DNA of 64,000 nt from Candidatus Woesearchaeota archaeon (GCA_016932315.1 JAFGDD010000018.1:115969-179968); one strand, 5' to 3'. Shown: positions 17,912-43,332, numbered from the stretch's first letter. Translations and numbers: made by a program. Notes: a model not told the origin generated them from the sequence alone.

Positions 17912-18385
17912 TTATGTTTCTTCATCAATTGGCTTTCCTGTTTCCTTTGCAATGGCTTTCTGAAGGCTCTCCTGGATTTCTTTTTTGACATTGACCTGTT
18001 CTTCTATGAGCGCTTCCTCAAGCTCTTCTTCTGCTTCTTTTATGATTCTTTCAACGCGATCAAAATCTGCTTTATCCTGGCTGGCTTCTGCCATTTTAAT
18101 CTTGGCAGGGACATTCCTTAGCATCATGTCTGCGATGAAAGGATCTTTTCCTCTTCTCCTTGCTTCGCTTATTTTTACTTTTATCTCTGCAAGCTTTTCC
18201 CTTAGCCGAGAGACTTTTTCATGGTGTTCCGCTTCTTCTTTCTCTTCCGCACGAAATTTTTTCTTGGCTTCAAGCCTTCTAAGCCTATCATCATATGCTT
18301 CGTCCAGTGTTTTGTTCTGCTCTGTCACTTCCCGGGCATTCCTTTTAAGCTCTTCGCTGAATTTTTCTTCTTCCTCCTCATTCAT
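17912..18385 (-). CDS. Highly charged K/E/R-rich small protein
   Basis: The track ORF starts at 18442, inside the upstream gene. The ATG at 18385 (MNEEEEEKFSEEL) overlaps the upstream stop by 8 nt, which is the typical coupling pattern here. No recognisable domain. Confidence 0.5.
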   Translation of the reverse strand: MNEEEEEKFSEELKRNAREVTEQNKTLDEAYDDRLRRLEAKKKFRAEEKEEAEHHEKVSRLREKLAEIKVKISEARRRGKDPFIADMMLRNVPAKIKMAEASQDKADFDRVERIIKEAEEELEEALIEEQVNVKKEIQESLQKAIAKETGKPIDEET

Positions 18386-19949
18386 GTGGCTTCTCCGCGG
18401 GTTTTTCCTTCTTTGCTTCTGGCTCCTTGCCTTGCGGTGCATTCTTCTGCATGTTATTATGCGGTCTGTCTGACGCTTTTAATGCTTTTTGTAATTTCTG
18501 CATTCCATCCCAAAATATTTTGCCCTTTATCACTTTGTTCTTGATATTTTTAATGTTTTTTATCATTTCATCATTTTTCTCTACTTTTATGTGTAGCAGC
18601 GGTATTTCATCCTGTATCTCGTATATTCTTTTCTCAAAATCATCCTGCTGGGTCTTGTAAGTCTCCTTGTCTATTGTTTTTTCCTTGTAATAGTCCGACT
18701 GATTTTTTTTCATCATATCAATGGTTATCTTGTGCTCATTGTCCAGCTTTACAATCCTGCTTTTCAGCCTTTCATGTTTTATGAATAGAAGGACTATGAT
18801 TAGCACACTGCCGCCTATTATTATGACGAGGAGTATTGCCAGCCAGTTATTTTTTATTGCTTCCAGTATGTTGAACTTCATCTTTGCCTTGTTGACTATT
18901 GACTGGAACAAGTGCTCCTGCTCTGTCTTTTGTTTCAATTCTTTTGCTTTTTTGAGCAGCTCTTCTGATCTTTCATAGTTCTCGAAATTGAATTCGTTCT
19001 TGCTTAGGTTAAGGTAATATGTTGCCTGGCTGAAGTCGATTCCTGCAAGCTCTGGCGCGAGCAGTGATGCTTCTGTTGAGCTTATCCCTTGGGCTAGCGG
19101 GCGTATGAGCTGCATCATGGTCGTTGTTGTGTTGTAAACTGCCAGTAGTTCTTCTGTATCAAGCACCTCGAAGTACGATTCTATCTCAGCGAGGTTTTCG
19201 TTCAGCCTTTTTGTGGAGTAGCCTTCCTGCTCTAGCAGCGCGATTTCCTGCTTCAGGCTTTGTATAGCGTTGGTTGACGCATTGATGCTCTCAAGGTTTC
19301 TTGTGAGTGTGAAAATAGTTGCTATGTCATTTGTTCTCTTGGCTGATTTTATTTGCTCATAAGTATTGTTTATCTGCTGGTTATAGATTCCTTGGGCTAT
19401 TATGTTCTGCTTTAATATCTCAACAGTCTCAAGAATGATTGCAGTTTCATTCTCAAGGTTCTTGATGATGAGTTCGTGGCTTTTTTCCAGGTTTTCATGG
19501 GCGCTTTCGAAATTGCTGCTGGTGAACTGGCTCAACCCGATGTTGGAATAGTATAATGGCTCGCTGATGTTGATATCCCTATGATTGGCTTCTTCCAGCA
19601 CTATTTTCGTATCATCTATTAAATTGCTGGTTATGGTCGCAAGTTCCAGTAGGCTGACGGTTTCTGCGTACTGCTTGCTTACGCCTGCGTAATCCCCTGA
19701 CTCGTATTTTGATTTCATGTCTGCAATAGCATCAGCGAACCTGATTGTAGGTATGCTATGGTTTTCCACCGAAGCAATTGTCTTTTCAATTTTGAAGATA
19801 AGGTTCCATGCGTCTGGTCCGGTGACTGCTTTGGTTGTCTGGTTTTCTGCCGATGCAAATGCTGGCATTAATATAACTAGGATTAAAACAATAAGTGCCA
19901 GCAATATGTTTGGTGTTTTTGTCACCTGATTTTTTTTCTGCTTTATCAT
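18378..19949 (-). CDS. Bitopic membrane protein: signal/anchor, ~350-aa helical ectodomain, TM segment, cytoplasmic coiled-coil tail
   Basis: 523 aa. N-terminal hydrophobic segment ILLALIVLILVILMPAFASA. A second TM segment is WLAILLVIIIGGSVLIIVLLFI. The tail is K/E-rich. Confidence 0.6.
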   Translation of the reverse strand: MIKQKKNQVTKTPNILLALIVLILVILMPAFASAENQTTKAVTGPDAWNLIFKIEKTIASVENHSIPTIRFADAIADMKSKYESGDYAGVSKQYAETVSLLELATITSNLIDDTKIVLEEANHRDINISEPLYYSNIGLSQFTSSNFESAHENLEKSHELIIKNLENETAIILETVEILKQNIIAQGIYNQQINNTYEQIKSAKRTNDIATIFTLTRNLESINASTNAIQSLKQEIALLEQEGYSTKRLNENLAEIESYFEVLDTEELLAVYNTTTTMMQLIRPLAQGISSTEASLLAPELAGIDFSQATYYLNLSKNEFNFENYERSEELLKKAKELKQKTEQEHLFQSIVNKAKMKFNILEAIKNNWLAILLVIIIGGSVLIIVLLFIKHERLKSRIVKLDNEHKITIDMMKKNQSDYYKEKTIDKETYKTQQDDFEKRIYEIQDEIPLLHIKVEKNDEMIKNIKNIKNKVIKGKIFWDGMQKLQKALKASDRPHNNMQKNAPQGKEPEAKKEKPAEKPHE

Positions 19950-19968: not shown

Positions 19969-22035
19969 TCACATGAATATTTTTTCCAGCGGGTAAACCC
20001 TTATTCCTTTGCCTTTGACGAATTCGAAAGGAACTATTTTCTTGAGGTGGTCTACTGCTCTCATCTTAAGTATCTCAAGCGCGCTCTGCTTCAGGTTTCC
20101 TTTCTGCAGGTTGTAAAACACTATTACTCCGTCTGCAAGGAATTCCTCGACTAGCCCATGGCCTATGTTTTCTATACCCTGCACTTCTGTTATTAGGAAT
20201 GATGTTGCTCCTGTTCTCTCAAGTATGTCTATAAGCTGGGTTACGTATATCCTGTAGGCTGTGCTTGAGTCTGAGAATGCTGCTGATATTGCAGAGAGCG
20301 AGTCGATGACTACCCTGTCTGGCTTGAAGTTTGGCGGCAGTATGTTGAGTATTGAGTTTATGTCTATCATCAATTCTCCTCTTGCGTGCGCTAGCAATGC
20401 CTCTATCATCCTTGATATCTTGAACGGGTCCTGCCTTTGTATCATTAAGGTTCCTTCTTGCAGGTATTTTCTCGGGTCGAGCCCGTATGCTTCCATGTGC
20501 TCTATCAGGTTTTCTTCTGATTCCTCAAATGTCATGAACAGGCATTTTTCGCCGTGCTCTGCAGCCCAGCCAAGCATTTGTATTGCAAAGGTTGTTTTTC
20601 CGCTTCCCGGCCCTCCTGATAAGAGTATTGTTGAGCCTGTTGGTATGCCGTCGCTTATCATATCGTCAAACCCGTACACTCCTGTCTTGATTTTTTTCCT
20701 TTCCTTCTTCTCTGTTTTTACTTCTTCCTCGACTGCTATGAATTCGCTGCTGTAATCTATGAGGTTGAGCTTTTCCAGGGTTTCTTTCACTGACATTATG
20801 GCTAAATCTACTTCTTGCTCTGATTTGCCTTTCTGCGGCTGCTCTGGCTTGAATTGTTCAGTTTTTATGGTTGAGGTTTCTACGCTCGCTGTTGTGCTTG
20901 CTGTGCTTGGTGGTGCTGAAGGTTCTATTTGTATTTTCGAAATCTCTGCTCCTTGCTTTTCTTTTTCAGCTTGCTTCTCCTTGGTTTCTGTTGCCTGCGT
21001 TGTCAGCTGAATGACTGTTTCTGCTGTTGCTACTGGTGATGTTGGCAGAGGCGGGACAATTTTTCTGCCTAGCCTCTCTTCATTCAGCTCATTAATCCTT
21101 GCTTTGATTAGCATTATAGTCTCTTCCTTGTTCTTTACATGAGTTAGAGCTTCTGCTAGATCTGCATCATTGACAATATGGTATATCCATGCTGCGAAAT
21201 CATTCTTGTGCTCATTCACGTGGTGCGAAAACACATCTTGGCTGATTCGTTGAAGTTCTTTTTCAAGCTCAGTCAGGCTTCTTATTATGTGCCCGTTCTG
21301 CAGCACAAATGAATGCTTTTTGTCAACAGCCCTCAGTAAATCTGGTTGGTAAGAGGGAACCTCAGCCAAGGGTTCTTCTTCTTGCTCTTCCTTGGCTTTT
21401 CCTTCGCGCCCCTTCCTGTGCTTTGATTCAGCTTGTTTTCTTGTTTTTTCTTCTTTTTCTTTTCTTATTTTCTTTTCTATGTCTTGTTTTATTTTCTCTT
21501 CTAATTCTCTCTTTATTCTTTCTTCTGTTTCTTTTCTTGCTTTTTCTTCCTGCTCTGCCCTTATTTTCTCTTCCATATCATGCTTTGCTTTTTCCTCTAG
21601 TTCGCGCCTTGCTTTTTCTTCATATTCGCGCCGTATTCTTTCTTCTGTTTCTTTTCTTGCTTTTTCTTCCTGCTCTGCCCTGATTTTATCTTCTAACTCT
21701 TTTCTTGCTTTTTCTTCAAATTCAGCTGTCAGACTTGGACGAGGCGCAGATGATGTGGGTATTGGCGATGGTTTTTGGGGTGGCGTCGGTGCAGGCTGAG
21801 GCGTTTCTGGTTCGGTTAGCTCTTTGACTTTTGAACTTATGAAGCCTATCAGTTTTTGCCTTTCAATCAATGGTTTTATCTCGTTTGCTAGATCACCATC
21901 CTTGATGTTCTTCAAAATCCAGTCCGAATAATCGTTCTTGCCTGCGTTCGCCCTTGTGCTGAATACCGCATCATCTATTGAGGAAAGCATCTTAATGAGC
22001 ATGTTCAGGTATTTGGCTTTAGTTAAATTGTCCAT
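19969..22035 (-). CDS. KaiC/RadA-like (RecA-superfamily) ATPase with two N-terminal KNDFA-x-W modules and a K/E/R-rich repeat region
   Basis: The C-terminal ~240 aa contain GFDDMISDGIPTGSTILLSGGPGSGKTTFAIQ (Walker A, ~20590-20618) and RVVIDSLSAI (Walker B-like). The track start at 22092 reads into repeat copy 2. The ATG at 22035 (MDNLTKAKYL) is the more likely start. Confidence 0.8.
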   Translation of the reverse strand: MDNLTKAKYLNMLIKMLSSIDDAVFSTRANAGKNDYSDWILKNIKDGDLANEIKPLIERQKLIGFISSKVKELTEPETPQPAPTPPQKPSPIPTSSAPRPSLTAEFEEKARKELEDKIRAEQEEKARKETEERIRREYEEKARRELEEKAKHDMEEKIRAEQEEKARKETEERIKRELEEKIKQDIEKKIRKEKEEKTRKQAESKHRKGREGKAKEEQEEEPLAEVPSYQPDLLRAVDKKHSFVLQNGHIIRSLTELEKELQRISQDVFSHHVNEHKNDFAAWIYHIVNDADLAEALTHVKNKEETIMLIKARINELNEERLGRKIVPPLPTSPVATAETVIQLTTQATETKEKQAEKEKQGAEISKIQIEPSAPPSTASTTASVETSTIKTEQFKPEQPQKGKSEQEVDLAIMSVKETLEKLNLIDYSSEFIAVEEEVKTEKKERKKIKTGVYGFDDMISDGIPTGSTILLSGGPGSGKTTFAIQMLGWAAEHGEKCLFMTFEESEENLIEHMEAYGLDPRKYLQEGTLMIQRQDPFKISRMIEALLAHARGELMIDINSILNILPPNFKPDRVVIDSLSAISAAFSDSSTAYRIYVTQLIDILERTGATSFLITEVQGIENIGHGLVEEFLADGVIVFYNLQKGNLKQSALEILKMRAVDHLKKIVPFEFVKGKGIRVYPLEKIFM

Positions 22036-22048
22036 TTTGTTTGTGAGT

Positions 22049-22162
22049 AAAAAAATTGCCTCAGCCCTCAGCAAGCGCAACGTCATGAGCAAATGCGAAT
22101 GACTTGCACTGCGGCTGACGCGACAGGGGTTGCTCCCTACGGGATGTCGCGGGCAATTTTTT
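22049..22162 (-). repeat. Structured palindromic repeat, copy 2
   Basis: On the minus strand: aaaaaa-TTGCC-CGCGAC-ATCCCGTAGGGAGCAACCCC-TGTCGCG-TCAGCC...GGCTGA-GGCAA-tttttt. It lies 14 nt upstream of the KaiC-like start. Confidence 0.8.
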
Positions 22163-31255: not shown

Positions 31256-31310
31256 CCATCCTATAATTTATTTATTCATCATTTATTTATCCATACATCA
31301 TTTTTCTTCA

Positions 31311-31541: not shown

Positions 31542-31644
31542 CTTTTCTTCCTGTTATCCTTCCCTTCTGTTAGGCTACTTTTATTATTCTCTCATTATTC
31601 TTTTGTAATTCTTTTTTTGTTATTCTTTTGTAATTCTATTTTTA

Positions 31645-34600
31645 TTATTGCTTTTTTTCTTTTGCTAAAAACAATATTTTTTCCAGAACTTTTCTCTTGA
31701 TTTCAGGAAGCATCTTCTCAAGCCCAGCCACGCTCATGTTAAGCTTTCTCATGTCATTGATGATGATCTCAGAGTCTACTATACAGGATAGCACTTCTGA
31801 TTCTTCCACCTCTGATATTATTAAAAACATCTCTGACTGTTGTGAATAGTTATTTGCTGTCGAGTTCTGGCTGTACTTTGTTTTGCCAGAGAAAAGAAGT
31901 GTTAAAGAGTGCGTGCTGTATCCCATGTATAGCGGGGCATTGAATGTTACCTCAAATGCAGATGACTCGTTTGGCTCGAGGCTTAGTATCATTTCAGGTT
32001 GTACGCTATAGCGACTTACAGGAAACCCGATGATGCTTAAGCTCAGATTAGCGATTATTATACTGTTGTTGTTGGTAATGTTTATGATAATCGTTTTATT
32101 GCTTCCGCGGAGAATCTCAGTCCTGTTGGTGAAAATAAATGATAATGAATACTCTTTAGGCAGCAGCATTCCGCCTCCGCTACCTCCTCTTCCTCCTCCG
32201 CCACCTCCTCCGCCAGAGCTTGGTTGGGTCTCTTCCTCTTCTTCTTCCTCCTCTCCAGTGTCAAGTTCGCTTACAGTCACTGTTTTTGTGATAGTCTTTT
32301 GCATGGCTTCACCATCTGATTTGAAGTAGTTCACGGTTATTGTAACATTAAGCTCTCCTGTCGTCGCATTAAGAGGAACAGATGCGCTCAGCCCGTAGCT
32401 TTCTGTCTGGAAGCTTGTCTGGTAGGGAGTAATATTTCCGACGTATTTGCTTAAGTTGCTGCTTGTTGTCCAATCCTCTGGCATGGACCAGTTAATGGTG
32501 GCATTAACGGCGGTTTCATTCCCGATGTTCTTAATAGTAGTGTTCAGCAATACTGACCTGTCACCCTGAGTCACTGAAGGATCATAAGTTACCTCATAGA
32601 ATGTGATGAATGGCCCCCCTTCACCTACTGCTATTGAGCCATTAATGGTGGCGTTGTTTGTTTCGCATTCACCTGTCAGGCATTCGATGAATAATGAGAA
32701 TGCATAAGGTGTCGGGTTTTGTTCCGGGGCGCTTGTAGATATGTTAATGATGGCGTTTTCCTTGCTGTTGATTGTCAGGCTGGTCTGGTTTATCCCTACT
32801 GTGGGGATTCCTGAAACTTTGGAGATGCTGAATTGCAGGGCATAGTCACCTGTGTTGTTGATGGTTATGTTGCCGATATTCACTGTGCTTCCTTCTGTTG
32901 TGAACACCTCATCAAATTGAGTGGGAGAGGACTCCCAAGTTCGGTCATAATAAACAGAAGTGTTGGTTTCAGCAGATGCATTCGAGTTATTGTATACGTC
33001 AATGCTATATATGCGGTATGTCCATACGCCCTCAGATGTTGGCGTGAAGCTTCCATTGTACATTGATGATGCGTTGGCCATGCTTGCGTTGAGCCACTCA
33101 GATAAGCTGGTGAGCCTGTACTGCAGGATGCTGCTGGTTATTGCTGAGTAATCTGTTATGTTGGTGCTTACATTAATTGTCACATTAGGGTCAAGATCTC
33201 CTGAAATATTAGGGGTCTGCATGGTATTGTTGATTAATGGAGGAGTCGTATCCTGCACTGTGAAGTTAAAATAGGATGTGAAGTTAAAGTTTCCTGCGCT
33301 GTCATTGAACAAAAACCTGTAAACATAAGTTCCGACGCCTGATACGCTCCATCGGTACTGATATGTTCCGCTGCCCAAGCTGTCAGTTGATTGGTTGGTG
33401 TAATTGGCTTCGATGGTCACTGTGCCGATGGAGCTGGTTGCATCATTCAAATATATGCTTACAAACTGGTAGCTTGTGCTGAGCTCAAAAGGGTCAGAGG
33501 TTTCTGTTGGAGTGCTCCAGTTCGGCGGAGTGGTGTCTACTGCAAAACTTGAGACGGTACATTCTGTTACCCCTATGGAATCTATTTCGCATAAGTCAAT
33601 TGAATTAGTCCCTTCAGATGCATTTATTGTGATATTATATTTGTACCTGTCATGAACAACGAATAGCATGTCCATGCTTGTATTGGAGAGCAATTCTCCT
33701 GAAGAATAATTGTTGAGATTAGCTTCCCATTGATAATAGTTGGTGCTGTCTCCAGATGCATTTAGGAACAGCCAGTATTTGGTCCCATTTGTGAATGTGA
33801 CTGTGGTGTTGAATGTTATGTTAACCCAGTAAAATTCATCCTGGCTTACCATTGATGAGTTGAGGGTGGTATTAAGAAGTATGGTATCTGATGGTGCTCC
33901 AGAACTGTCAGTTCTTACCTGAACGTATGTCAAGTATGAGTTCGCGCTGCTTTTTTTCAGCTTGAGCTTGATAAGGTTTACAGTGAGATTTTCAGCAGGC
34001 GTGAATGACTGTGAAATATTGGTAAGGTTGTTGGTGGTGTACATTTCAGTGCTTTCGCTCTTGTTATTCTGCGCTGAGACTCCATAGAAGAGATGAGTTG
34101 CTTCGCCTGAGTTCAGTGAGAAGTAAACATCCTGGTATGGCGTGTTGTTATCATTCACACGAAAAGCAAGAGCTATGTCAGAATGATTGTATGTTTGTGA
34201 CAGCACAGGAGAAGTTATGTTTATCCCGTAATTATTGACAATGAAGAAGTGAGTGTAATTATACCCTGTGTTGTTGATGGTGTCATTTGATGTTATGCTG
34301 ACATTGTACCTTGTGGTATTGGTGAGGCCGCTGATATTGCCCACGTACAAGTCTCCGCTTGAATGATTGAGCTGGATGGATGTTGCCCCGCCTGCCCAGG
34401 TGACGTTGACTATGATCTTATCAATCCCTGTTGCATCACTGGCTGTTACATTGATAGGTATCACTACGCCTGCGCTATATTCAAAGCTCTGGCCTGCGCT
34501 TGGAGAGATTGCTGTGACGCTTGGTGCTGAAAGGTCTGGCCTTGCCATGACGTAGAAAACTATATCATCAGTATCAGAATCAGAGCTGTCTTGGCCGCAG

Positions 34601-35115
34601 GTCATGCTGCTGGTCCCAGGATAGGCAATGATAAACCTTAATGCGTGCCCTCCTTCGTTGTCATCCAGCGTATAGTTGTAATAGACATCATAATAATTGT
34701 ATACCGGGCATGTGCCTGAGTAAATATTCTCCCAGACAGTATCATTCCCATTAGAATAATTGGAGTATGCAATCGCGTAAATGTCGCCTGGATAACAATA
34801 GAATTGGCTGTATATGTTAATGGTGTCCCCTCCCTTGAAGTTGGTGCCGTTGAGATCGGTGACGATCATTTTCTCGACCCATTCGTACCAGTCATAATCG
34901 CTCTGCCCGATCCCATCTTCGCACTCATCAAGAGTATTATAGCCGGGGGGATATTCCCAGCTGCCCTGGCAGTTAGGGTCGCACGCGCAAATATAGTTAG
35001 GTGTTGCGCAGGTGCTTCCTGCATCAGCTGATAATAGCCCAGGGGCTAGCAAAAGCAGAGTGAGCAAGGCCATGCAGATAATCCAAAAATTATTTTTTCT
35101 TCTCAAGTTAATCAA
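31645..35115 (-). CDS. Large secreted surface protein (Cys-rich N-domain, Ig-like/CARDB-like beta-sandwich repeats, E/G linker)
   Basis: 1156 aa. Signal peptide FWIICMALLTLLLLAPGLLSADA. N-x-S/T sequons are dense. The linker is EEEEEEETQPSSGGGGGGGGRGGSGGG. No C-terminal TM segment. Confidence 0.75.
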   Translation of the reverse strand: MINLRRKNNFWIICMALLTLLLLAPGLLSADAGSTCATPNYICACDPNCQGSWEYPPGYNTLDECEDGIGQSDYDWYEWVEKMIVTDLNGTNFKGGDTINIYSQFYCYPGDIYAIAYSNYSNGNDTVWENIYSGTCPVYNYYDVYYNYTLDDNEGGHALRFIIAYPGTSSMTCGQDSSDSDTDDIVFYVMARPDLSAPSVTAISPSAGQSFEYSAGVVIPINVTASDATGIDKIIVNVTWAGGATSIQLNHSSGDLYVGNISGLTNTTRYNVSITSNDTINNTGYNYTHFFIVNNYGINITSPVLSQTYNHSDIALAFRVNDNNTPYQDVYFSLNSGEATHLFYGVSAQNNKSESTEMYTTNNLTNISQSFTPAENLTVNLIKLKLKKSSANSYLTYVQVRTDSSGAPSDTILLNTTLNSSMVSQDEFYWVNITFNTTVTFTNGTKYWLFLNASGDSTNYYQWEANLNNYSSGELLSNTSMDMLFVVHDRYKYNITINASEGTNSIDLCEIDSIGVTECTVSSFAVDTTPPNWSTPTETSDPFELSTSYQFVSIYLNDATSSIGTVTIEANYTNQSTDSLGSGTYQYRWSVSGVGTYVYRFLFNDSAGNFNFTSYFNFTVQDTTPPLINNTMQTPNISGDLDPNVTINVSTNITDYSAITSSILQYRLTSLSEWLNASMANASSMYNGSFTPTSEGVWTYRIYSIDVYNNSNASAETNTSVYYDRTWESSPTQFDEVFTTEGSTVNIGNITINNTGDYALQFSISKVSGIPTVGINQTSLTINSKENAIINISTSAPEQNPTPYAFSLFIECLTGECETNNATINGSIAVGEGGPFITFYEVTYDPSVTQGDRSVLLNTTIKNIGNETAVNATINWSMPEDWTTSSNLSKYVGNITPYQTSFQTESYGLSASVPLNATTGELNVTITVNYFKSDGEAMQKTITKTVTVSELDTGEEEEEEEETQPSSGGGGGGGGRGGSGGGMLLPKEYSLSFIFTNRTEILRGSNKTIIINITNNNSIIIANLSLSIIGFPVSRYSVQPEMILSLEPNESSAFEVTFNAPLYMGYSTHSLTLLFSGKTKYSQNSTANNYSQQSEMFLIISEVEESEVLSCIVDSEIIINDMRKLNMSVAGLEKMLPEIKRKVLEKILFLAKEKKQ

Positions 35116-35159
35116 TGGCTCTCCTCTTTTTTTTGGCTGGGTGTCAGATCTTTGTGCGC

Positions 35160-38100
35160 TTATGCGCTGCTGAGGGCTTCTAGCAACTTGTTCCTGTCGT
35201 GTATCCTGCTGATCTTATCAGCCAGTTCTTTGTTGTGCAGGCCATCCCTCACCCAATCTGCGAACTTGTTATAATCATCACTGACATAATGCTTGAATGA
35301 TGCATCATCCATGTTCTTGACTTTGTCCTGCAGCTCATTCAATGTCTTGATTTCCTCTCCGGTTTCCAGCTTAAAACTGTAGCTTATCTCTGCTTCTTGC
35401 ACGCCAGAATCAGCGGCTGGCACGGGCTTCGCGCCTTTGACTTTTTCTTCAAGCCCCGGCTTTGCAGATTTTTTTTCACCATTCTCAGGTTTTCTTGGCG
35501 AGACAGCTTGAGGCAGCCGATTGCTTTTTCTTAATTCTATGCATTTTATTACATCTTCCCTTTTCGACATAGCCCCAAGTTGTTCTGCAAGCAGAGCATC
35601 CCCAATGATGTTTCTTGTCCAGTCTGCAAAGTCATTCTTTTGCCCGTTAACATGTTTTGCGAAATCACCATCACTCATGTTTACAAGCTCATCATGTAAG
35701 CTGTCAAGGTTCATCACAAGAATCCCATTAACGAGCACGAGCATATCTTCAGGCTCTGCATTCTTCTCAAAGAATTTGGCGGGTGGTGTATCGCTGCTCT
35801 GCGCCTCTTTTTGCTGTCCTGCTTGCTTAGCTTTTTCTGTTTGCTCTTTTGGCTGAGGTTCGACTTCTGCTTTCTTCTTTATTTCGCTAGGCTCCCCTGA
35901 TAGTTCTGAGAATGCTTTGATTTCTTTCAGCTTTTTTATTTTATCCGGCTCAAGCTTCGGGAGGGGCTTTTGATTCTTTCGTAAGTCAATCAGGGACAAA
36001 ATGTCTTTTTTCTCAACTGCTAATGACATATGGTCTGCTAGCTCTGCGTCCCCGACAGCTTCCCTCACCCAGTTAGCGAAATCATTCTTATTTTCTGTGA
36101 CGTGCTTTGCATAATCATCATCCTTCATGGCAGATATTTCGTCGTAAAGGCTTGCCATATTTATCACCAGCATGCCGTTTACCAATTTGAGTATCTTGTC
36201 AGGCTCGACGTCCTTCTTGAAGAAGTTGATGGCTCCTTTATCCTTCTTCTCTTCCCCTTCTCCGCTTGCGGAAGCCTCCTTCTTCATCATTGCTTCGTAG
36301 TCTGATCTTGCTTTTTTGGCTCTTGTGATTGCCTCTTGTAATTCTGTTTCTGAAACAAGTTTTTTCTCGAGCTTCTCTGGTTTTTTGCCGAGCTTGTCCC
36401 AATGCTTTTGTATTCTTGGCGTCAAGCCATCAAGGTATATCTGCACCATGTTGAAGTTGCCTGTCTTTACCTTGTCAGTGGCCAGCTTAAGCTCCAGTTT
36501 TAGGTCGAATACGTCAATGCCTTCTTTTTCAAGCTGCTCGAGCTCGAATTGAAGCTGGTCAATTTTGTCATTATATTCATTGTACTTCTCGATTTCCTCG
36601 TCGGTAAGCCTCTGTACGCTGTGAAGCAAAGGCCTGAAAGCGACGAAATAGGGCTTACCAATATTATAGTGTGGGTTTTCCACCATGCCGCTTCCTACTG
36701 TTGCCTTGACCAGTGACCTGAGCACGTCTTCCCCGTATTTGACCTTGATTCTCTCGAGGTCGCCTTCATCCCTGGTTCTCATCTGGATTTCTGTGTTAAT
36801 GTTAGCCTTGATGGTTCCTACGAAGTCGCTAAGTACCTGTGAAATTAGCAGTATGCCGAGGCCCCACTTTCTGAACTCTCTGCATCCTCTCTCTATCTGA
36901 AGGAATCCTTCTCCGCTTCCTCCGAATTTCGGGAGCAGCCTGTGAACCTCATCATAAACGAACAATACCTTGAGGGTCCTACTTTCCTGGAAGTTGGCCC
37001 TGAAAATTTCACGGATGCTGTTGGCGACGAACATATCCATTTCCCTTGGCTCAAGCTTGTGGCAGGCAAATACCTGTATCTCACCCGGCTTTATGTATTT
37101 CCTAATTTCAATTATTTCCCTTGGGTTGGTTATCTGCCTGATGTTGCCGCTGAAAGCCTTGGCATCTGTCGGCTTCATTCCGAATAATGGATAAAGCGCA
37201 AGCATGGTTTTGTCTGTGCATTTCCTGAGCATTCCGGTCCATTGCGCTGTCGGGTCAAACACAACAACTGCGATTCCTTTCATCAGCATCTCTTCGACTA
37301 TTACCTGCGCTGAGACTGATTTTCCGCTGCCTGTGCTGCCTGCGTCGATGCAGTGCGTCATGAAGGCTTCAAGGCTGAAATATGTTTTGTGGTCTGTCTC
37401 TGCAATCCTTCCGACAGGTATGCTTCTCGGGCCTGGCTTTGGCAGCTCATTAAGGTCGACTTTCAGGTGGAACTTCTTCTTTGACTCAATATTTCTCTTT
37501 ATCTGCCAGTATGCCACGAGACCCAGCGCCACCAGAAGCAGGAACAACAACAGATGCCACATTTTGATTGGCCCTATAATGGTTACCAAGTACCAAGGCG
37601 TGCTTATCCTGAAAATCGTGCTGGTTCCTGCGCTCAACCCGAGATAGTTGGCAGTTACCCTTAGTATGTAGTCGCCGGGCTTGGCCTTGGCTGTAATCAA
37701 GGCATTCTTCAGCAGGGAGAATGATGTTCTTAGGAATACATTGGTTTCATAAGACCATATTGTTTCTTTCCCTTCGATGTCCTGGATGGTGTATAATAAT
37801 TGTACAGGGTACTGGAGGTCTGTAAGCAGGTTTCTCAGGTCGGTCTTGAACTTGAGGCTGCTGCCAGGATAAACCACGTTCTTGTTGAGCTCTAAGTCAA
37901 TCAACAAGGCTTGTACTGGCAGCATTTCTTTTGGCAGGATTTCTATGATTATGGGGATGCTTACATTTATGTCCCCTGACATGACAAGGCTGCCATTGTA
38001 AATGCCCGGGTCTCCGACGCCAAATATGGTGAGGGTGACTGAATCATCAGAGCGAGATAACAGGATCATTGATTCCTTATCCATTTTTATCAGTGAGCTC

Positions 38101-39362
38101 ACATTGCCTTCAATTGTGAAGTAGATGTTGGCTGCTTTTTCCTTGAAGCTGTAAAGAGTGACTTTCTCCTGGAGGAAATTCCCTAGTCTGAGTTTTCTGT
38201 TAATCTCAGAGATGGACACGATGTAGTCTGTTCCTTCTATTTTCTTAGGCCTTTGGACTACAGGCGGCATGTCATACTCTCCTGATTTTGTTTTTGTACC
38301 TTCGGCATCAACTCCTGTTGTGGTAGTTGTTCCAGGAGCGTCTTCTCCGGGGCCTATACCTGTGAGTGGCGGGTAAGGAGGCTGTTTGGCAACCATGACA
38401 ATATTATGCGCTGTGCCATTTTCACGTACCACCGTTACGTTGCTTCTATAGATTTCATAGCCTGTCTTCATGGCATAAACTGTCCAGTTGCCTTCGCGGA
38501 CTGTTACATTGTAGAAGCCTGTTGTGTTGTCGCTGTAAGTTGCTTCTCCGCCAATCTCAACAATTACGCCGCCAAGAGGGTTTCCGGAAGTATCTGTGAC
38601 ATTCCCATAAACATAGCCTTCCCATGGAGCTGTTCCCTGTCCTTCAGGGCATGTGTCTGTTGGATCTGACCATAAGTAATAATCCTGCCATTCTGTGTTA
38701 TGAATAGGTAGGAGCATTTGGTAATTGAACCTTTCTCCTGTGAAACCATCAATTGGAGATTCAAGCACTTTTGTGACAATGACCAAATTATCATTGCTGT
38801 CTTTTAGTATTCCTGTAACAAATGAAGTAGAGTTCTGGCTGTTCCAGGCATAAGTATGCATGGCAGGTGCAATCACATCTCTGCCTCCAACATCAAAGGT
38901 TTCTGTTGATGTGAATGTGTTAGTTGCAGAGAAGAATTCTCCAGTGCTTATGTTAAGATAATCATCTATTTCTGCTGCTGTAGCTGCTACAAGCGAGTCG
39001 AAGATGATTTCATCTTCAGGCACCATGCTGGCATATATCTCGTGCTCTGCGTCCTGCGCAAAGCAGGTGAATAATAAGTGCTTTTCATTATCATCTTCTG
39101 TTAATGTTACATTGCCTGTGAAATTATAATACCATTCCTGAGTCCACCCAACGCCCCAAGCAGTTCCATAAACACCAGACCAGTGGCTGACGTCGAATGC
39201 AAGCTCAAGCTCAATTTCAGTGATTGTGCCGCCATCAGTCTGGAGGTAGGATGCATAGCCTATGAATTGCGATACTATGATTAACCCTTTGATGGCTAGC
39301 ACTACAAGTATGATTATTAGAATTCCGAATGCAATTTCCTTATTCCTAGTCTTCACAACCAT
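35160..39362 (-). CDS. Membrane-anchored HerA/FtsK-superfamily P-loop ATPase with a ~570-aa ectodomain and three C-terminal KNDFA-x-W modules
   Basis: 1400 aa. TM1 is ILIIILVVLAIKGLIIV. The ectodomain includes a CarboxypepD_reg-like segment (GNVTDTSGNPLGGVIVEI..GFYNVTVREGNWTVYAMKTGYE). TM2 is WHLLLFLLLVALGLVAYW. Walker A GSTGSGKS lies at ~37316-37342 and Walker B VLFVYDEVHRL at ~36942-36972. A HerA-like LLISQVLSDF...NTEIQMRTRD segment follows. Confidence 0.75.
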   Translation of the reverse strand: MVVKTRNKEIAFGILIIILVVLAIKGLIIVSQFIGYASYLQTDGGTITEIELELAFDVSHWSGVYGTAWGVGWTQEWYYNFTGNVTLTEDDNEKHLLFTCFAQDAEHEIYASMVPEDEIIFDSLVAATAAEIDDYLNISTGEFFSATNTFTSTETFDVGGRDVIAPAMHTYAWNSQNSTSFVTGILKDSNDNLVIVTKVLESPIDGFTGERFNYQMLLPIHNTEWQDYYLWSDPTDTCPEGQGTAPWEGYVYGNVTDTSGNPLGGVIVEIGGEATYSDNTTGFYNVTVREGNWTVYAMKTGYEIYRSNVTVVRENGTAHNIVMVAKQPPYPPLTGIGPGEDAPGTTTTTGVDAEGTKTKSGEYDMPPVVQRPKKIEGTDYIVSISEINRKLRLGNFLQEKVTLYSFKEKAANIYFTIEGNVSSLIKMDKESMILLSRSDDSVTLTIFGVGDPGIYNGSLVMSGDINVSIPIIIEILPKEMLPVQALLIDLELNKNVVYPGSSLKFKTDLRNLLTDLQYPVQLLYTIQDIEGKETIWSYETNVFLRTSFSLLKNALITAKAKPGDYILRVTANYLGLSAGTSTIFRISTPWYLVTIIGPIKMWHLLLFLLLVALGLVAYWQIKRNIESKKKFHLKVDLNELPKPGPRSIPVGRIAETDHKTYFSLEAFMTHCIDAGSTGSGKSVSAQVIVEEMLMKGIAVVVFDPTAQWTGMLRKCTDKTMLALYPLFGMKPTDAKAFSGNIRQITNPREIIEIRKYIKPGEIQVFACHKLEPREMDMFVANSIREIFRANFQESRTLKVLFVYDEVHRLLPKFGGSGEGFLQIERGCREFRKWGLGILLISQVLSDFVGTIKANINTEIQMRTRDEGDLERIKVKYGEDVLRSLVKATVGSGMVENPHYNIGKPYFVAFRPLLHSVQRLTDEEIEKYNEYNDKIDQLQFELEQLEKEGIDVFDLKLELKLATDKVKTGNFNMVQIYLDGLTPRIQKHWDKLGKKPEKLEKKLVSETELQEAITRAKKARSDYEAMMKKEASASGEGEEKKDKGAINFFKKDVEPDKILKLVNGMLVINMASLYDEISAMKDDDYAKHVTENKNDFANWVREAVGDAELADHMSLAVEKKDILSLIDLRKNQKPLPKLEPDKIKKLKEIKAFSELSGEPSEIKKKAEVEPQPKEQTEKAKQAGQQKEAQSSDTPPAKFFEKNAEPEDMLVLVNGILVMNLDSLHDELVNMSDGDFAKHVNGQKNDFADWTRNIIGDALLAEQLGAMSKREDVIKCIELRKSNRLPQAVSPRKPENGEKKSAKPGLEEKVKGAKPVPAADSGVQEAEISYSFKLETGEEIKTLNELQDKVKNMDDASFKHYVSDDYNKFADWVRDGLHNKELADKISRIHDRNKLLEALSSA

Positions 39363-39380
39363 TTTGTTTTTTTAGTATGT

Positions 39381-39494
39381 AAAAAAATTGCCGCCACCTG
39401 CCACAGCACCGCAAAAATTTTTATTAAAAATTTTAAGGTGCTTGGTGGCTTGCTCGGGGGTTGCCCCGCCCGGGGTGAGCAAGGCGATTTTTTT
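39381..39494 (-). repeat. Structured palindromic repeat, copy 6
   Basis: On the minus strand: aaaaaaa-TCGCC-TTGCTCA-CCCCGGGCGGGGCAACCCCC-GAGCAA-GCCACCAAGCACC-(AT loop)-GCGGTGCTGTGGCAGGTGGC-GGCAA-ttttttt. It lies 19 nt upstream of the ATPase start. Confidence 0.85.
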
Positions 39495-39552
39495 GCTCGT
39501 TAGTTTTGTTTTTCTCCTTTCTTTTTTCACCTTTTCATCCATATCTTTTCAT

Positions 39553-42500
39553 TTATATCAAATTCTTTGTGTTATCAATCATGATTTGTATCTTGTTGCC
39601 GATTTCAACGAGTGCCGGGTGGAGCAGTTCTTTTTCTGCATCGCTGAACTGGTTGTATGTCTGCTCAATGCTCTTGTACTCTTCCAATGCAGGCATTAGT
39701 TGGGCATAGCTGATTAACTGCTGTATGTGATTTATCCTGCTTGTTAGTTCGTTTATTATGCTCTGGCTTTGAACAGATTGGTAATAATCGCTTATCTTGC
39801 TGGCTGCCTCTGCTACTTTCTCGTAAACATCATTCTTTGCCATGTTTGGAAGTTCAGCATATGCGCCTTTGGCTTCTGAATATAGTTCACATGCCTTGTT
39901 CAGGTCGCCGACTGAAAGGTTTTCATGGATTTCACTAAGCACAACATTGATGTAATGCAGGCTCTTTCTTCCCTGCAGCCTGTAATAAGCGTGCTTGGCG
40001 TGTGTGACTCCGTCATATCTCATGCCTGCGAATACCATGCTTCCTAATAATATGATGATGACTGGCAGGAATATTATTCCCTTGATCTTCGGTAGCTTCA
40101 GGTTCTTCACTGAGAAGCCGGTTATCTTGCTGTTTTCTTTTATGGTGTTTGGCTCTATAAATACAGCAGTCCTTATGTTCTTAAGCAACTCTGAATCTAT
40201 GTTTGTGTTGAAATAATAACTTATCTGGGTAATGCTTGAACTATCTCCTTTTAGGTCGAATTTTATTATTGGATCTTGTTTTATTACTTCGAACTTCTGC
40301 TGGCTCATAATTTCCTCTGCACTTCCTGCAACGTCTTTTGGTATGAGCTCGATTATGAATGCATCACTGGTAATATTGTATGCTTTTATCTCGCGGATGA
40401 TAATGCTGGAGTCGCTCTGGGTGCCGTCCCTGTACATAACCCTAGCAGTCTTCACCTTGGTAGAAATCACTATCTCTTGTTGTAGCTCATCAAGGTAGGT
40501 GAGCGCATCCTTAAGATTAACCTCTTCTTTTTGCCCTTTTATCTCCAAATATTGCTCGAGCAGTGATTGAAGCTCTTCTTTCTTTATATAATCAACAAAT
40601 GCGTCGCTTCCAAGGAGTTGGATGCTTACAGGAGTTTTCTGGTATGTTTGATCTGCTGCTGCAACATATTTTTCTCCTTCTTCTTGCTTGTCAGAGTCTG
40701 TCAGGTCGCTTCTGAATCTTAGTGAGTCAATGTCCCTAATGGTATTTTTGAAGGTTTGGATGCCTTCATCCACCATGGCTTGGATGCCAAGGGCGTCTGC
40801 TGCTTCTTTTTCTTCTTTTGGCAGGTTGCTGAAGCTTTCATATACCTGCTCAAACTCTTTTATCCAGTCATTATAAACTTTGTAATCACTGTTTGTCTCC
40901 TCAGCTGTTGTGGCTAATTGGAGGGGCGCCCCAACATTGAACTTCCAAGTGCTGCTCATAGCACTGTTGCCTTCCTTGTCTATGCATTCGACTTTCCACC
41001 AGTAGCTCTTGTTTTCTAGCTGTATCACTCCGAAGCGCTGCTCTGAGGAGCTGCTTAGTTCGTCGCTTCCAAGGTAGATGAAGAACCCGTCGTTGTTTTC
41101 ATTAATATATATGCTGCAGTTCACATTCTTGTCATATTCGACTTTGTAAACCAGTTCTTCTTCAGGCCCTATGACTGGCGAATTATTCTCTGGCAATAAT
41201 AATGTGATTATGGGCTTGGAAGCTGTTATTGGATTGAGCAGTATGGTTATTGTTTCATCACTAGTTATGTTAAGTTCACTGTTGTATACAGAATAGTTTT
41301 CTCTCAAAACCAGGATGTCCCTTCTTCCTTCTTCAAGATAATAGTTGACTTCTCCATTTGCGTCTGTAGTTTCCTGGTCTTCCTCTACTTCTACTGTGGC
41401 TCCTGCAATTGGCGAATTGGTTTTTGAATCTTTCACACGAATCGTGATGTAAGCTGTATTCTCAACATATACTGTTACGCTCTTATTCATGGTGTTGTTA
41501 TATGCATCCTCGACAAATACGGTGTTGGTATAGTTGCCACTTGCGGAGTAGGTAATATTTACTTTGCTTGCATTGGTTCTTGTGCCGTTACTTAATTGCC
41601 AAGTGTAATTCAGGTCACCAACTCCGCCAGTAGCCGTTGCTTTGAGCTGAACAGGAACATTTCTTCTTTGGTTAATATTGGTTGCAATGTCGATGTTGAT
41701 GTTGTTATTCACTTTGTAGCCTATTTCCTGAGTTTGGGTGATGCCTGAATAGTTGAAGAACGCCTCTAAAATGTATTTTCCTGCGTAATTGGTGTATGGC
41801 ACTAGTTCTATGAGCGGGAATTCAGTTATGTTTTGCGCATTTATTGGTACTTTGCACTCCACAAACCCTGTCTGGTTGGGGCATACTTCCACTCTGACGC
41901 TCGTGCCAGCTGGCGCGCTTATGCTCATCTGCCCTGATTGCCCTGTTGCGTATTCAGCGCTGTCTAGGAATACCCTAAAGTCAGGCAATGGCGGCTCTGA
42001 TAAGACCGTGAAGCTTCTGGTTTCACTCTCCTTGATATTGTTGGCGTAATCAACGCAGGCTACTTTCCAGGTGTAGTTGCCATCGCTTAATTGGTCGATT
42101 GTAACTGTGAGAGGCTGACTGTTTGTTGCTAATACGAATTGATTGACTTCACTGTTGGTTATGACTGAGCAGTTCATGATTTCTGCTAGGTTGTCCAATG
42201 CTACAAAGCTTAGCTCTACGCTGCTGGTTTCAAACACTATGTTGTTCTGCGGATTGAATAGGACAATTGTCGGCTCCACCCTGTCGTATGTTATGGTCCT
42301 TTCTTCACTGGATTCAGAACCGTTGGCAGAGTCGCATGTTATGCTCCATGTGTGCTCTCCTGGCTCAATGCCGCCCAATACAAACTCGTTGAATCCAGGA
42401 TTGGTGGCGTTGGTTATTGTGTCATTTGTCAGCGCGGTGTCGGAGTCCATTATCAGTTTGCATTCTGTCAATTCTTCTATGCTGATGTAATACTCGAATG

Positions 42501-42648
42501 TATTTTCTTCCTGGTTGGTGCAAGCATTGTTTTCAGGATTTACAAGGCTAACAGCTGCCGAGGCGCAGTGTATGCTGATGAGCAGTATGAGTGCTATAAG
42601 CATCACGAAGAACTTACTCATTTCAATCTTGTTGTTGTCCTTACTCAT
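39553..42648 (-). CDS. Type-I membrane surface protein (Ig-like, PKD-like and CarboxypepD_reg-like domains; C-terminal TM; ~165-aa helical cytoplasmic tail)
   Basis: 1031 aa. Signal peptide FFVMLIALILLISIHCASA. A PKD-like segment is NYTWQLSNGTRTNASKVNITYSASGNYTNTVFVEDAYNN. Another segment reads IRVKDSKTNSPIAGATVEVEED..DANGEV. TM segment: IIFLPVIIILLGSMVFAGM. Confidence 0.75.
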   Translation of the reverse strand: MSKDNNKIEMSKFFVMLIALILLISIHCASAAVSLVNPENNACTNQEENTFEYYISIEELTECKLIMDSDTALTNDTITNATNPGFNEFVLGGIEPGEHTWSITCDSANGSESSEERTITYDRVEPTIVLFNPQNNIVFETSSVELSFVALDNLAEIMNCSVITNSEVNQFVLATNSQPLTVTIDQLSDGNYTWKVACVDYANNIKESETRSFTVLSEPPLPDFRVFLDSAEYATGQSGQMSISAPAGTSVRVEVCPNQTGFVECKVPINAQNITEFPLIELVPYTNYAGKYILEAFFNYSGITQTQEIGYKVNNNINIDIATNINQRRNVPVQLKATATGGVGDLNYTWQLSNGTRTNASKVNITYSASGNYTNTVFVEDAYNNTMNKSVTVYVENTAYITIRVKDSKTNSPIAGATVEVEEDQETTDANGEVNYYLEEGRRDILVLRENYSVYNSELNITSDETITILLNPITASKPIITLLLPENNSPVIGPEEELVYKVEYDKNVNCSIYINENNDGFFIYLGSDELSSSSEQRFGVIQLENKSYWWKVECIDKEGNSAMSSTWKFNVGAPLQLATTAEETNSDYKVYNDWIKEFEQVYESFSNLPKEEKEAADALGIQAMVDEGIQTFKNTIRDIDSLRFRSDLTDSDKQEEGEKYVAAADQTYQKTPVSIQLLGSDAFVDYIKKEELQSLLEQYLEIKGQKEEVNLKDALTYLDELQQEIVISTKVKTARVMYRDGTQSDSSIIIREIKAYNITSDAFIIELIPKDVAGSAEEIMSQQKFEVIKQDPIIKFDLKGDSSSITQISYYFNTNIDSELLKNIRTAVFIEPNTIKENSKITGFSVKNLKLPKIKGIIFLPVIIILLGSMVFAGMRYDGVTHAKHAYYRLQGRKSLHYINVVLSEIHENLSVGDLNKACELYSEAKGAYAELPNMAKNDVYEKVAEAASKISDYYQSVQSQSIINELTSRINHIQQLISYAQLMPALEEYKSIEQTYNQFSDAEKELLHPALVEIGNKIQIMIDNTKNLI

Positions 42649-42913
42649 GTTCCAGCTCCTTTATCATTTCTCTAAGTCTCTTGATGAGCTCTTCCTTGAC
42701 CATGTTTTCTGTCTTGAAGTCTGCTTTTTTTTCTGGCTTCTCTTCTTTTGCAGGCGCGGTTTCGCTCAGTTTGAGCTTGTACTCCATCACCTTACTCTTG
42801 GTTATGCTCCTGACTTCTTCGCTTACATCTAAGAAATGGTTCTCCTTGGCCAGCTCCTTGAGTTTCTGAACCAGGGAGGATGGCATCCTCACACTTACTA
42901 TTGAAGCTACCAT
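42641..42913 (-). CDS. Ribbon-helix-helix (CopG/Arc-like) DNA-binding protein
   Basis: 90 aa. IVSVRMPSSLVQKLKELAKENHFLDVSEEVRSI fits a beta-alpha-alpha RHH fold. It overlaps both neighbouring genes by 7-8 nt. Confidence 0.65.
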   Translation of the reverse strand: MVASIVSVRMPSSLVQKLKELAKENHFLDVSEEVRSITKSKVMEYKLKLSETAPAKEEKPEKKADFKTENMVKEELIKRLREMIKELEHE

Positions 42914-43122
42914 CCCTCACCCCCGTGTCCAGATTTTTTGGCTTTTTCCTCAACGTGCATTTGGCTTTGCACGTATTCTCTGGCGAATTCTCGTACAGCT
43001 TCTGAGCGCGACTTGAAGAGTTTCTTTTTGACTAATGCATCTAGCTCTAGAATTAGCTCGTCAGGCAAGCGAACGTTCAATACCTCAGTCTTCTTTTGCA
43101 ATCTTAAACCCCTGTATGACAA
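42907..43122 (-). CDS. Ribbon-helix-helix (CopG-like) DNA-binding protein
   Basis: 71 aa. VLNVRLPDELILELDALVKKKLFKSRSEAVREFAREYV is a classic RHH pattern. The only in-frame start candidates are TTG codons, so the start is uncertain. Confidence 0.65.
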   Translation of the reverse strand: MSYRGLRLQKKTEVLNVRLPDELILELDALVKKKLFKSRSEAVREFAREYVQSQMHVEEKAKKSGHGGEGW

Positions 43123-43162
43123 ATGTATGTTAAATGTATGCTTTTTGTCAGTTTTCTGTGTG
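43113..43162. promoter_or_regulatory. Five TGTNNG hexamers phased at exactly 11 bp (candidate RHH operator array)
   Basis: TGTATG at 43113, 43124 and 43135, TGTCAG at 43146 and TGTGTG at 43157. Further TGTATG copies lie at 43212 and 43216; 43212 is 5x11 bp beyond the last hexamer. The array overlaps the 5' end of the first RHH gene. Confidence 0.45.
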
Positions 43163-43332
43163 CCTGAGTTCTCTACACGCCACCAACAGTATACGTAAGC
43201 GTATAGTATTCTGTATGTATGACAATAGCAAGTATATAAATATTACGATTTTTGGCAGAAAATGAGATTTAAAAGAAATTTTTACAAAAGTTTAAATAGA
43301 TTTGAAAGCTTCTCCCTCACGGGTGATAAATT

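Follow-up and report, generated by a model that had tools for sequence, protein, structure and literature searches.

What is the system that pairs a gene for a membrane-anchored ATPase with genes for large surface proteins in a Candidatus Woesearchaeota archaeon, and has it been met before? The locus in question lies at positions 31645-43122 of a 64,000-nucleotide (nt) stretch of DNA from this organism, hereafter the window, where a first-pass annotation had described five minus-strand genes as a candidate novel envelope apparatus. DPANN archaea account for a large share of archaeal diversity and most of them appear to be host-attached; for this attachment and for the exchange of material with hosts, SPEARE proteins form one group of candidates. 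Here, we show that the locus is a real, strongly conserved system whose core protein belongs to a family that has been known since 2019 and is functionally uncharacterised, and that the locus itself is the Woesearchaeota-type version of the DPANN SPEARE system. All five open reading frames were recovered with exactly the boundaries that the first-pass annotation gave them; topologies are predictions from sequence throughout.

The core protein and its family

The fourth gene of the locus encodes the core protein, which we divide as follows.

35160..39362, minus strand: SPEARE-type ATPase, 1400 amino acids (aa), with a predicted first transmembrane segment (TM1), an ectodomain, a second transmembrane segment (TM2), an ATPase domain, a helical region and three DUF5752-like modules
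37569..39272, minus strand: predicted ectodomain of the ATPase protein, aa 31-598
36618..37445, minus strand: P-loop ATPase domain, predicted cytoplasmic, aa ~640-915
36333..36617, minus strand: conserved helical, coiled-coil-like region following the ATPase domain, aa ~916-1010
35163..36230, minus strand: three DUF5752-like modules, aa ~1045-1400 (Pfam DUF5752, E 2e-15, and alignments)

Hydropathy places TM1 at aa 12-30 and TM2 at aa 599-617 with a 568-aa ectodomain between them, and 13 of the 14 sequons fall within the predicted ectodomain (aa 80-466); the agreement of hydropathy and sequon bias supports this topology. The layout claimed in the first-pass annotation is thereby borne out, and the motifs quoted there are all present (GSTGSGKS at aa 675, VLFVYDEVHRL at 799, LLISQ at 838 and NTEIQMRT at 856). 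Pfam matches along the protein are DUF87, HerA_C, CarboxypepD_reg and DUF5752.

The 1400-aa protein is almost certainly a SPEARE family member with a short ectodomain, for three reasons. By BLASTP, its residues 605-977 align with the C-terminus of the SPEARE protein from Ca. Nanohaloarchaeum antarcticus (46% identity, E 2e-112; sequence from the supplement of PMC6642349), and the alignment spans TM2, the ATPase domain and the helical region. Its ortholog AYK26_03765 (P0010 in our set), 71% identical over 91% of the length of the window protein and encoded by 'Euryarchaeota archaeon SM23-78', appears in Table S3 of Hamm et al, 2019 (PMC6642349), so that the phylogeny of that paper already included a Woesearchaeota-type ortholog. 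Finally, its order of ectodomain, transmembrane segment, ATPase and coiled coil is the one published for the family (PMC10266531). The word "novel" in the first-pass annotation can thus not be kept, since the family was described in 2019: SPEARE proteins reach 8553 aa, lie mostly outside the cytoplasm and have a single transmembrane segment and a conserved intracellular region, to which the authors gave a type III restriction enzyme annotation (Hamm et al, 2019; PMC6642349). The same study saw similar sequences in Woesearchaeota, Aenigmarchaeota, Micrarchaeota and Altiarchaeales, counted short forms of 655-717 aa as SPEARE as well, and detected the protein of Ca. Nha. antarcticus by proteomics (PMC6642349). 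A later re-annotation under the name giant membrane-anchored extracellular proteins found no nuclease and instead a VirB4/TraG-like ATPase followed by a coiled coil, proposed a secretion "straw", and reported Ca. Nanohalobium constans to lack the giant proteins (La Cono/Reva et al, 2023; PMC10266531).

What the window protein shares with these proteins is a homologous module of transmembrane segment, cytoplasmic ATPase and coiled coil, with the ectodomain predicted outside, the ATPase inside and TM2 directly preceding the ATPase. Its helical region corresponds to the C-terminal coiled coil described for SPEARE proteins (PMC10266531); AlphaFold2 predicts helices at model positions 297-367, and the alignment with the SPEARE C-terminus extends to residue 977. 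SPEARE proteins and the window-type family also have a hypervariable adhesin-type ectodomain in common. In contrast to the described SPEARE proteins, however, the window protein has 1400 aa rather than thousands (its relatives range from 404 to 6253 aa), and its 568-aa ectodomain is shorter than the cytoplasmic part and is additionally held by an N-terminal transmembrane segment. Size is not strictly defining for SPEARE, as the 655-717-aa forms are included and the relatives span this wide range. Further differences are the three DUF5752 modules in the tail, adhesin parts that are separate genes, and the genes around it: two ribbon-helix-helix (RHH) genes and a surface protein gene upstream, and two coiled-coil genes, CC1 and CC2, downstream.

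Full-length homologs of the ATPase protein (43-79% identity) were all found in metagenomic genomes labelled Woesearchaeota or Nanoarchaeota, and relatives of the ATPase occur in at least 555 species-representative genomes; these are real genes and not chance reading frames. A profile search over 1.84 billion representative proteins returned 405 clusters at E < 1e-30, in which the ATPase domain forms the C-terminal end of proteins of 404-6253 aa; among the 149 best representative clusters, 52 have 1900-6253 aa. In most giants among the matches listed, a predicted transmembrane segment lies ~100 residues before the conserved FDPTAQW motif of the ATPase, and many keep the membrane-proximal part of the ectodomain. 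The ectodomains of the family otherwise vary enormously in size and content, and include Peptidase_S8 and Beta_helix domains.

In the window protein the ectodomain consists of an N-terminal domain, a CarboxypepD_reg domain, a linker rich in Pro, Gly and Thr, and a membrane-proximal region (aa ~340-570). The N-terminal domain (aa 33-250, ~220 aa) is conserved and has two invariant cysteines; no relative was found for it in Pfam or the PDB. We read the membrane-proximal region, which has no Pfam match in the window copy and is kept in giant fused relatives, as two Ig-like domains. CarboxypepD_reg is thus the sole Pfam match in this ectodomain, which lacks laminin-G and Peptidase_S8 matches; Laminin_G_3 and Peptidase_S8 occur in proteins of related loci. 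At the other end of the protein, the first-pass annotation had counted three KNDFA-x-W modules. Two of them read so (KNDFANW and KNDFADW, aa 1092 and 1242); the third reads YNKFADW, yet aligns as a DUF5752-like module, and the middle one is an extra copy that relatives lack. The module weakly matches PDB entry 4cso (OrfY protein, transcription factor; E 0.005), and the literature searched yielded no paper on DUF5752 or on DUF87 in DPANN.

Gene order and conserved partners

We compared the window proteins by tblastn with 83 fetched related loci, of which 46 carry enough upstream and 45 enough downstream DNA; the taxon labels of relatives (e.g. 'Woesearchaeales') are those of NCBI record titles. 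The partners that this comparison adds lie to the left of the annotated locus.

17912..18442, minus strand: CC1, 176-aa helical protein, in relatives directly after the ATPase
16628..17830, minus strand: CC2, 400-aa coiled-coil protein, the most constant partner of SPEARE-type ATPases
13857..14450, minus strand: w197, 197-aa protein encoded just upstream of the giant gene, with a paralog at 22372-22932
1..13860, minus strand: giant secreted surface protein, at least 4620 aa in the window with 283 sequons, its C-terminus beyond the left edge

In relatives, the ATPase gene is followed by CC1, CC2, sometimes hypA or a UbiA-family gene, w197 and the giant secreted protein. In the window, ~16.7 kb of other genes (a gene for a 1156-aa secreted protein, G1156, hypCDE, hypF, a CheC-like gene, KaiC-like genes and others) separates the ATPase from this set. 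The closest relative, locus L105, with an ATPase 79% identical to that of the window, has the uninterrupted order ATPase, CC1, CC2, hypA, a 208-aa gene and the giant gene; the interruption is thus specific to the lineage of the window. CC1 overlaps the ATPase stop in L105, and the next gene overlaps that stop in L001, L002 and L105. The five-gene unit of the first-pass annotation therefore needs redrawing: it includes a lineage-specific neighbour, G1156, and leaves out four conserved partners (CC1, CC2, w197 and the giant protein) that lie outside the coordinates it covered.

CC2 is long and helical, with an MGLFG-type N-terminus and a conserved core (aa 45-280), and the Woesearchaeota-type copies carry a basic C-terminal motif; we read the terminal motifs as possible membrane-binding segments. 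Of the 45 loci, 41 have a CC2 gene no more than 6 kb downstream of the ATPase, with a median distance of 783 nt from the ATPase stop. The gene encodes ~320-440 aa in most loci, with 36-71% identity among the Woesearchaeota-type ones. Three giant-fusion loci without RHH and surface protein genes also have a CC2 homolog as the next gene downstream of the ATPase, and a homolog comes after the ATPase in 13 of 18 loci fetched with the SPEARE C-terminus (21-39% identity), under the labels Nanohaloarchaeota, Micrarchaeota, Altiarchaeales and Norongarragalinales. The ATPase-CC2 pair is conserved across the DPANN groups sampled and is apparently new: the literature searched mentions neither this pairing nor the CC1-CC2 arrangement downstream. 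This differs from a published account, in which a VirB4/TraG-family ATPase gene has been reported downstream in two cultured nanohaloarchaea (PMC10266531), whereas the fetched Nanohaloarchaeota loci carry a CC2 homolog at this place.

Searches of Pfam, NCBIfam and PDB profiles with CC2 gave generic coiled-coil matches only and no relative. The MGLFG N-terminus had suggested a protein of the PspA/Vipp1/ESCRT-III type. This idea is not supported: hhalign of CC2 against E. coli PspA gives a probability of 1.8%, and Foldseek finds no match at E < 0.2, with Vipp1 entries among the insignificant matches only. In loci L087-L101, labelled Nanohaloarchaeota, Micrarchaeota or Altiarchaeales, a CC2 homolog comes right after the gene of the SPEARE-type ATPase.

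In relatives, the conserved cluster ends with the giant protein. Its complete orthologs in L026 and L046 have 2460-2468 aa, a signal peptide, no C-terminal transmembrane segment and a shared C-terminus ending in FY(T/A)EIK, a combination that fits attachment to a membrane anchor. For w197, which has no match in Pfam or NCBIfam, we suspect a winged-helix regulator.

Upstream of the ATPase lie four further features.

42907..43122, minus strand: RHH1, ribbon-helix-helix protein of 71 aa whose gene opens the cassette (Pfam RHH_1, E 1.7e-7)
42641..42913, minus strand: RHH2, 90 aa, predicted N-terminal ribbon-helix-helix and helical acidic C-terminal tail
39553..42648, minus strand: S1031, predicted type-I surface protein of 1031 aa (Pfam, hydropathy and sequon distribution)
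39363..39552, minus strand: spacer between S1031 and the ATPase gene, 190 nt (z = -2.3), with a GC-rich palindrome, an AT-rich stretch and a terminator-like hairpin

The assignment of both small proteins to the ribbon-helix-helix class agrees with the first-pass annotation: the RHH_1 match of RHH2 is weak in the window copy (E 8.8e-4), and 12 of 19 orthologs match RHH_1, the best at 3.9e-8. RHH1 also has weak NikR-N and CdrS-like NCBIfam matches, all under the cut-off. The overlaps of 7-8 nt between the first three genes proved correct as well (7 nt for RHH1/RHH2, 8 nt for RHH2/S1031). S1031 has the architecture claimed for it, with a signal-like segment (aa 15-33), an ectodomain with PKD_4, Big_13 and CarboxypepD_reg matches, a single transmembrane segment (aa 858-876) and a cytoplasmic tail that measures 155 aa; 21 of its 22 sequons fall in the predicted ectodomain. 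Beyond these Ig/PKD-type matches, the PDB and Pfam hold nothing informative on S1031.

RHH1 precedes the ATPase in 41 of the 46 loci with enough upstream flank, and RHH2 does so in 39. S1031 has a homolog as the immediate upstream neighbour of the ATPase in 41 of them, its architecture kept at an identity of only 22-55%, and the order RHH1-RHH2-S1031-ATPase is likewise kept in 41 of the 46, in Woesearchaeota-labelled genomes. The first-pass annotation is supported in this part, namely a membrane-anchored ATPase of the HerA/FtsK superfamily with a large ectodomain, encoded together with a conserved Ig/PKD-type type-I protein and two RHH proteins. The system is split in this lineage, with the adhesins S1031 and the giant secreted protein separate from the ATPase; other lineages carry the adhesin parts on the ATPase protein itself, as fused ectodomains of up to ~6000 aa. 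Both the RHH-RHH-S1031 cassette and the split layout recur consistently among the Woesearchaeota-type loci sampled, and no description of the upstream arrangement was found in the SPEARE-related literature searched.

A single five-gene operon, as had been proposed, is less secure, because the spacer with its terminator-like hairpin separates the third and fourth genes and uninterrupted transcription is not assured. The hairpin with its T-run (39389-39408) is the only terminator-like hairpin on the minus strand in a scan of 31000-43400. A search of the 83 related loci did not find the GC-rich palindrome at 39449-39483 (CTTGCTCACCCCGGGCGGGGCAACCCCCGAGCAAG), which occurs once in the window, and an Rfam search of the whole window matched no family.

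Two further genes of the window bear on the ATPase, one by its position and one by its domains.

31645..35115, minus strand: G1156, predicted secreted, sequon-rich protein of 1156 aa with a Cys-rich N-terminus
19969..22092, minus strand: KaiC707, 707 aa, with one DUF5752 module (KNDFAAW, 21000-21300) and a C-terminal KaiC/ArlH-like ATPase

G1156 was rightly described as secreted and sequon-rich, with a signal-like N-terminal segment and 70 sequons (6.1 per 100 aa). As a conserved partner it was rejected: homologs occur in 5 of the 83 loci and never directly after the ATPase, where L105 lacks it too; instead they follow CC2 (L048, L067) or a KaiC707-like gene (L047, L066, L070). KaiC707 is a candidate regulator, since a DUF5752 module is common to it and the tail of the SPEARE-type ATPase.

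Among the remaining genes, KaiC707 belongs to a signalling-type cluster on the minus strand (19969-24291) with a 186-aa paralog of w197, a 180-aa KaiC-fragment/DUF7504 protein and a CheC-like phosphatase. The hydrogenase maturation genes at 24435-31541, hypF (plus strand) and hypE, hypD and hypC (minus strand), lie within the 16.7-kb segment; relatives have only hypA in the cluster, between CC2 and w197. Between CC2 and w197 the window carries a gene for a UbiA-family prenyltransferase with a long N-terminal extension (14976-16565, plus strand); a UbiA gene has the same position in L001 and L106. The stop of a gene at 18378-19949 (minus strand), for a 523-aa protein with two predicted transmembrane segments and a weak TPR match, overlaps the CC1 start by 65 nt, and genes of 490-556 aa stand inside the cluster in L009 and L010. 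On the other side of the locus, 43333-64000 holds two small unknown genes, adk, a NifS-like cysteine desulfurase gene, truD, a gene for an LPG-synthase-like membrane protein, gatE, gatD and cdc48, a housekeeping block that is syntenic with relatives. The synteny with adk, truD and nifS argues that the locus is chromosomal and not mobile.

Comparison with characterised ATPase systems

Does the ATPase place the locus within a system whose function is known? The domain has a Walker A motif (GSTGSGKS), a Walker B motif (VYDEVH) and an ISQ that aligns with the SQR motif of HerA; it is 58-88% identical across aligned homologs, with Walker A and B invariant. HerA proteins are its PDB matches by sequence (E 2.7e-5 to 1e-3; 8xau, 4d2i and 9x1l closest). 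The AlphaFold model of the cytoplasmic part (mean pLDDT 72.8; 258 of 386 residues at 70 or above) finds Sulfolobus HerA (4d2i) as best Foldseek match, at E 6.6e-6 and a TM-score of 0.38, followed by T. kodakarensis HerA, the packaging ATPase B204 of STIV2, VirB4 (E 1e-3) and EccC (E 1.5e-3). NCBIfam scores are far below the cut-offs, with 33.8 bits against 600 for CedD, 25 against 567 for TraC, 20 against 590 for VirB4_plasma and 22-27 against 800-970 for the HerA models. The cytoplasmic domain thus lies within the HerA/FtsK superfamily, and not confidently in any characterised system. Homology does not reveal the substrate, given how remote the structural likeness to HerA, VirB4 and EccC is.

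The exclusion of an archaellum, a type IV pilus, a Ced or Ted system and HerA-NurA by the first-pass annotation agrees with these scores, and NurA, CedA and pilin-type genes were not found in the conserved neighbourhood. With HerA, to which it is closest by sequence and fold among solved structures, the domain shares the region from Walker B to the SQ motif. However, the window protein is membrane-anchored and lacks an N-terminal HAS-barrel, for which there is no room between TM2 and Walker A because the ATPase starts ~40 residues after TM2. The HerA partners NurA, Sir2 and DUF4297 were not seen in the neighbourhoods. A HerA-like core without HAS-barrel and without NurA does not make a HerA-NurA system.

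CedD/VirD4-type proteins (Ced of Sulfolobales, PMC11823120; bacterial type IV secretion) belong to the same superfamily and have an N-terminal membrane anchor before the cytoplasmic ATPase. CedD is the best NCBIfam match of the window protein, but the match covers the Walker A region only. The window protein has in place of a loop a 568-aa glycoprotein domain. VirD4 and TrwB have the order TM1-loop-TM2-ATPase, as seen in the window protein. No CedA, CedA1, CedA2 or CedB gene lies near the locus, and the low family scores, together with the lack of a polytopic channel or pilin-like protein among the conserved neighbours, set it apart from Ced, Ted and type IV secretion systems. EssC/EccC and FtsK/SpoIIIE are also membrane-anchored members of the superfamily, with weak Foldseek matches (4n1a, 6t8g; for FtsK, probability 0.35 and E 4.7e-3), and type VII secretion genes likewise stand beside genes for small helical proteins. 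In contrast to EssC/EccC, the window protein has one ATPase domain instead of three and no FHA domain, and it has no Pfam match to FtsK_SpoIIIE (PF01580) or the FtsK gamma domain. With a single ATPase domain, a weak EccC fold match and WXG100 matches of CC2 homologs that are not specific, it does not fit a type VII system either.

The first-pass annotation had staked its reading on the ATPase falling outside known characterised systems and on the conservation of its flanking genes. The outcome is mixed: the ATPase clusters confidently with a family that is described and functionally uncharacterised, the upstream genes are conserved neighbours, and G1156 downstream is not.

Possible function of the split system

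What might such an assembly do? The ATPase may be the motor on which a contact or adhesin complex sits, a reading for which we see the balance as even. Like its relatives, it would form a hexameric ring under the membrane, the transmembrane helices and the membrane-proximal ectodomain would carry an adhesin complex on the cell surface as its base, with S1031 and the secreted giant proteins attached to it, and CC2 would dock to the cytoplasmic side of the ATPase. ATP hydrolysis would then drive the movement of a polymer at the site of host contact, for which we would favour DNA import before protein export. The RHH pair probably regulates the cassette, and the DUF5752 modules probably recruit a KaiC-like regulator. 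That DNA is what is moved is a tentative proposal, less probable than the motor itself; it is preferred because most relatives of the ATPase act on DNA and DPANN archaea are thought to need external nucleotide sources. With similar reserve, we consider it possible that ATPase and CC2 form the conserved cytoplasmic core of a DPANN-wide host-contact machine that moves DNA or protein between symbiont and host, distinct from type IV, Ced and type VII systems and existing in fused forms with a giant ectodomain or split forms with separate adhesins.

Several observations weigh against this proposal. No polytopic, channel-forming membrane protein is conserved in the neighbourhood, and with one or two transmembrane helices per protomer a DNA-sized pore is doubtful. 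The fold likeness to HerA, VirB4 and EccC is distant, with a TM-score that reaches 0.38 at most. The RHH genes and S1031 are absent beside the giant fused forms, which makes them accessory, and the terminator-like hairpin leaves the co-transcription of S1031 and the ATPase unassured. Finally, we infer, rather than observe, the hexameric state, the docking of CC2, the attachment of the adhesins and the role of the DUF5752 modules.

How do other explanations fare? The "straw" proposed for nanohaloarchaeal family members (PMC10266531) would be a type IV-secretion-like device in which the surface protein binds the host and a VirB4/TraG-like ATPase secretes effectors, with CC1 and CC2 as substrates or chaperones, a role likened to that of the WXG100 proteins of the FtsK-like EssC/EccC in type VII secretion. 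The VirB4 and EccC fold matches, the TrwB_AAD_bind matches of some homologs and the small helical genes directly after the ATPase, in L001, L002 and L105 overlapping its stop, are in line with it, and 2 of 11 CC2 homologs match WXG100 (E 4.4e-5), albeit amid many generic coiled-coil matches and hence not specifically. However, HerA outranks VirB4 in both sequence and fold searches, the window protein has no Pfam match to the VirB4 N-terminal domain, its TraC and VirB4 scores are far under the cut-offs, and genes for a VirB6/CedA-like channel or a VirB2/CedA1-like pilin were not found in the conserved neighbourhood; we regard the straw as unlikely. An explanation without translocation, to which we give an equally low chance, is an envelope module in which ATPase and CC2 form a submembrane scaffold for assembling, anchoring or remodelling the surface layer of giant glycoproteins of the cell itself, or serve FtsK-like division or segregation. 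This would suit an ATPase that is so widespread among species genomes and whose gene keeps its place on the chromosome near adk and truD, a long coiled coil whose conserved terminal motifs may bind membranes, the lack of a conserved channel protein nearby, and giant proteins that have a signal peptide and no C-terminal anchor and so need an anchor rather than a dedicated exporter. Yet the variability of the ectodomains, with Peptidase_S8 and Beta_helix domains, fits changing external targets better than a housekeeping wall, the absence of the giants from Ca. Nanohalobium constans (PMC10266531) speaks against an essential role in division, and FtsK alpha, beta and gamma domains were not detected.

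The original reading of Hamm et al (2019), a type III restriction-enzyme-like module that degrades host-derived DNA (PMC6642349), is largely refuted and in our estimate very improbable. The label can be traced to weak Pfam ResIII and DEAD matches in some family members, which cover only the P-loop region. The analysis detected no nuclease domain; the cytoplasmic domain can be aligned with HerA-type motifs and resembles hexameric translocases in fold. The 2023 re-analysis came to the same conclusion (PMC10266531). A mobile element, with RHH proteins as relaxosome accessories and a coupling ATPase for conjugation, or a HerA-type anti-phage defence system has in our view barely any chance. RHH proteins adjoining a coupling-protein-like ATPase do recall TraM/TraD, and there is a weak NCBIfam TprA match (E 0.0035). 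On the defence side, however, PADLOC gives generic HerA/mad8 P-loop matches only and none for the partner proteins, and we rejected this candidate; integrase, relaxase, Sir2, NurA and DUF4297 partners were not found, and the chromosomal position among housekeeping genes is conserved across many species.

In conclusion, at least 555 Woesearchaeota-labelled species genomes carry the cytoplasmic module of SPEARE, often in a protein of 1100-1400 aa and not in a giant. What the present comparison adds is a corrected parts list for the system and a DPANN-wide partner of the ATPase: as CC2 follows the ATPase in all DPANN groups sampled, it is a candidate obligatory partner. The Woesearchaeota-type set offers defined and much smaller proteins for study than the nanohaloarchaeal ones of 5000-9000 aa. 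If ATPase and CC2 are indeed the core of a host-contact machine, the Woesearchaeota-type locus would display its full parts list, comprising the RHH pair, S1031, CC1, CC2, a regulator and the giant cargo or adhesins.

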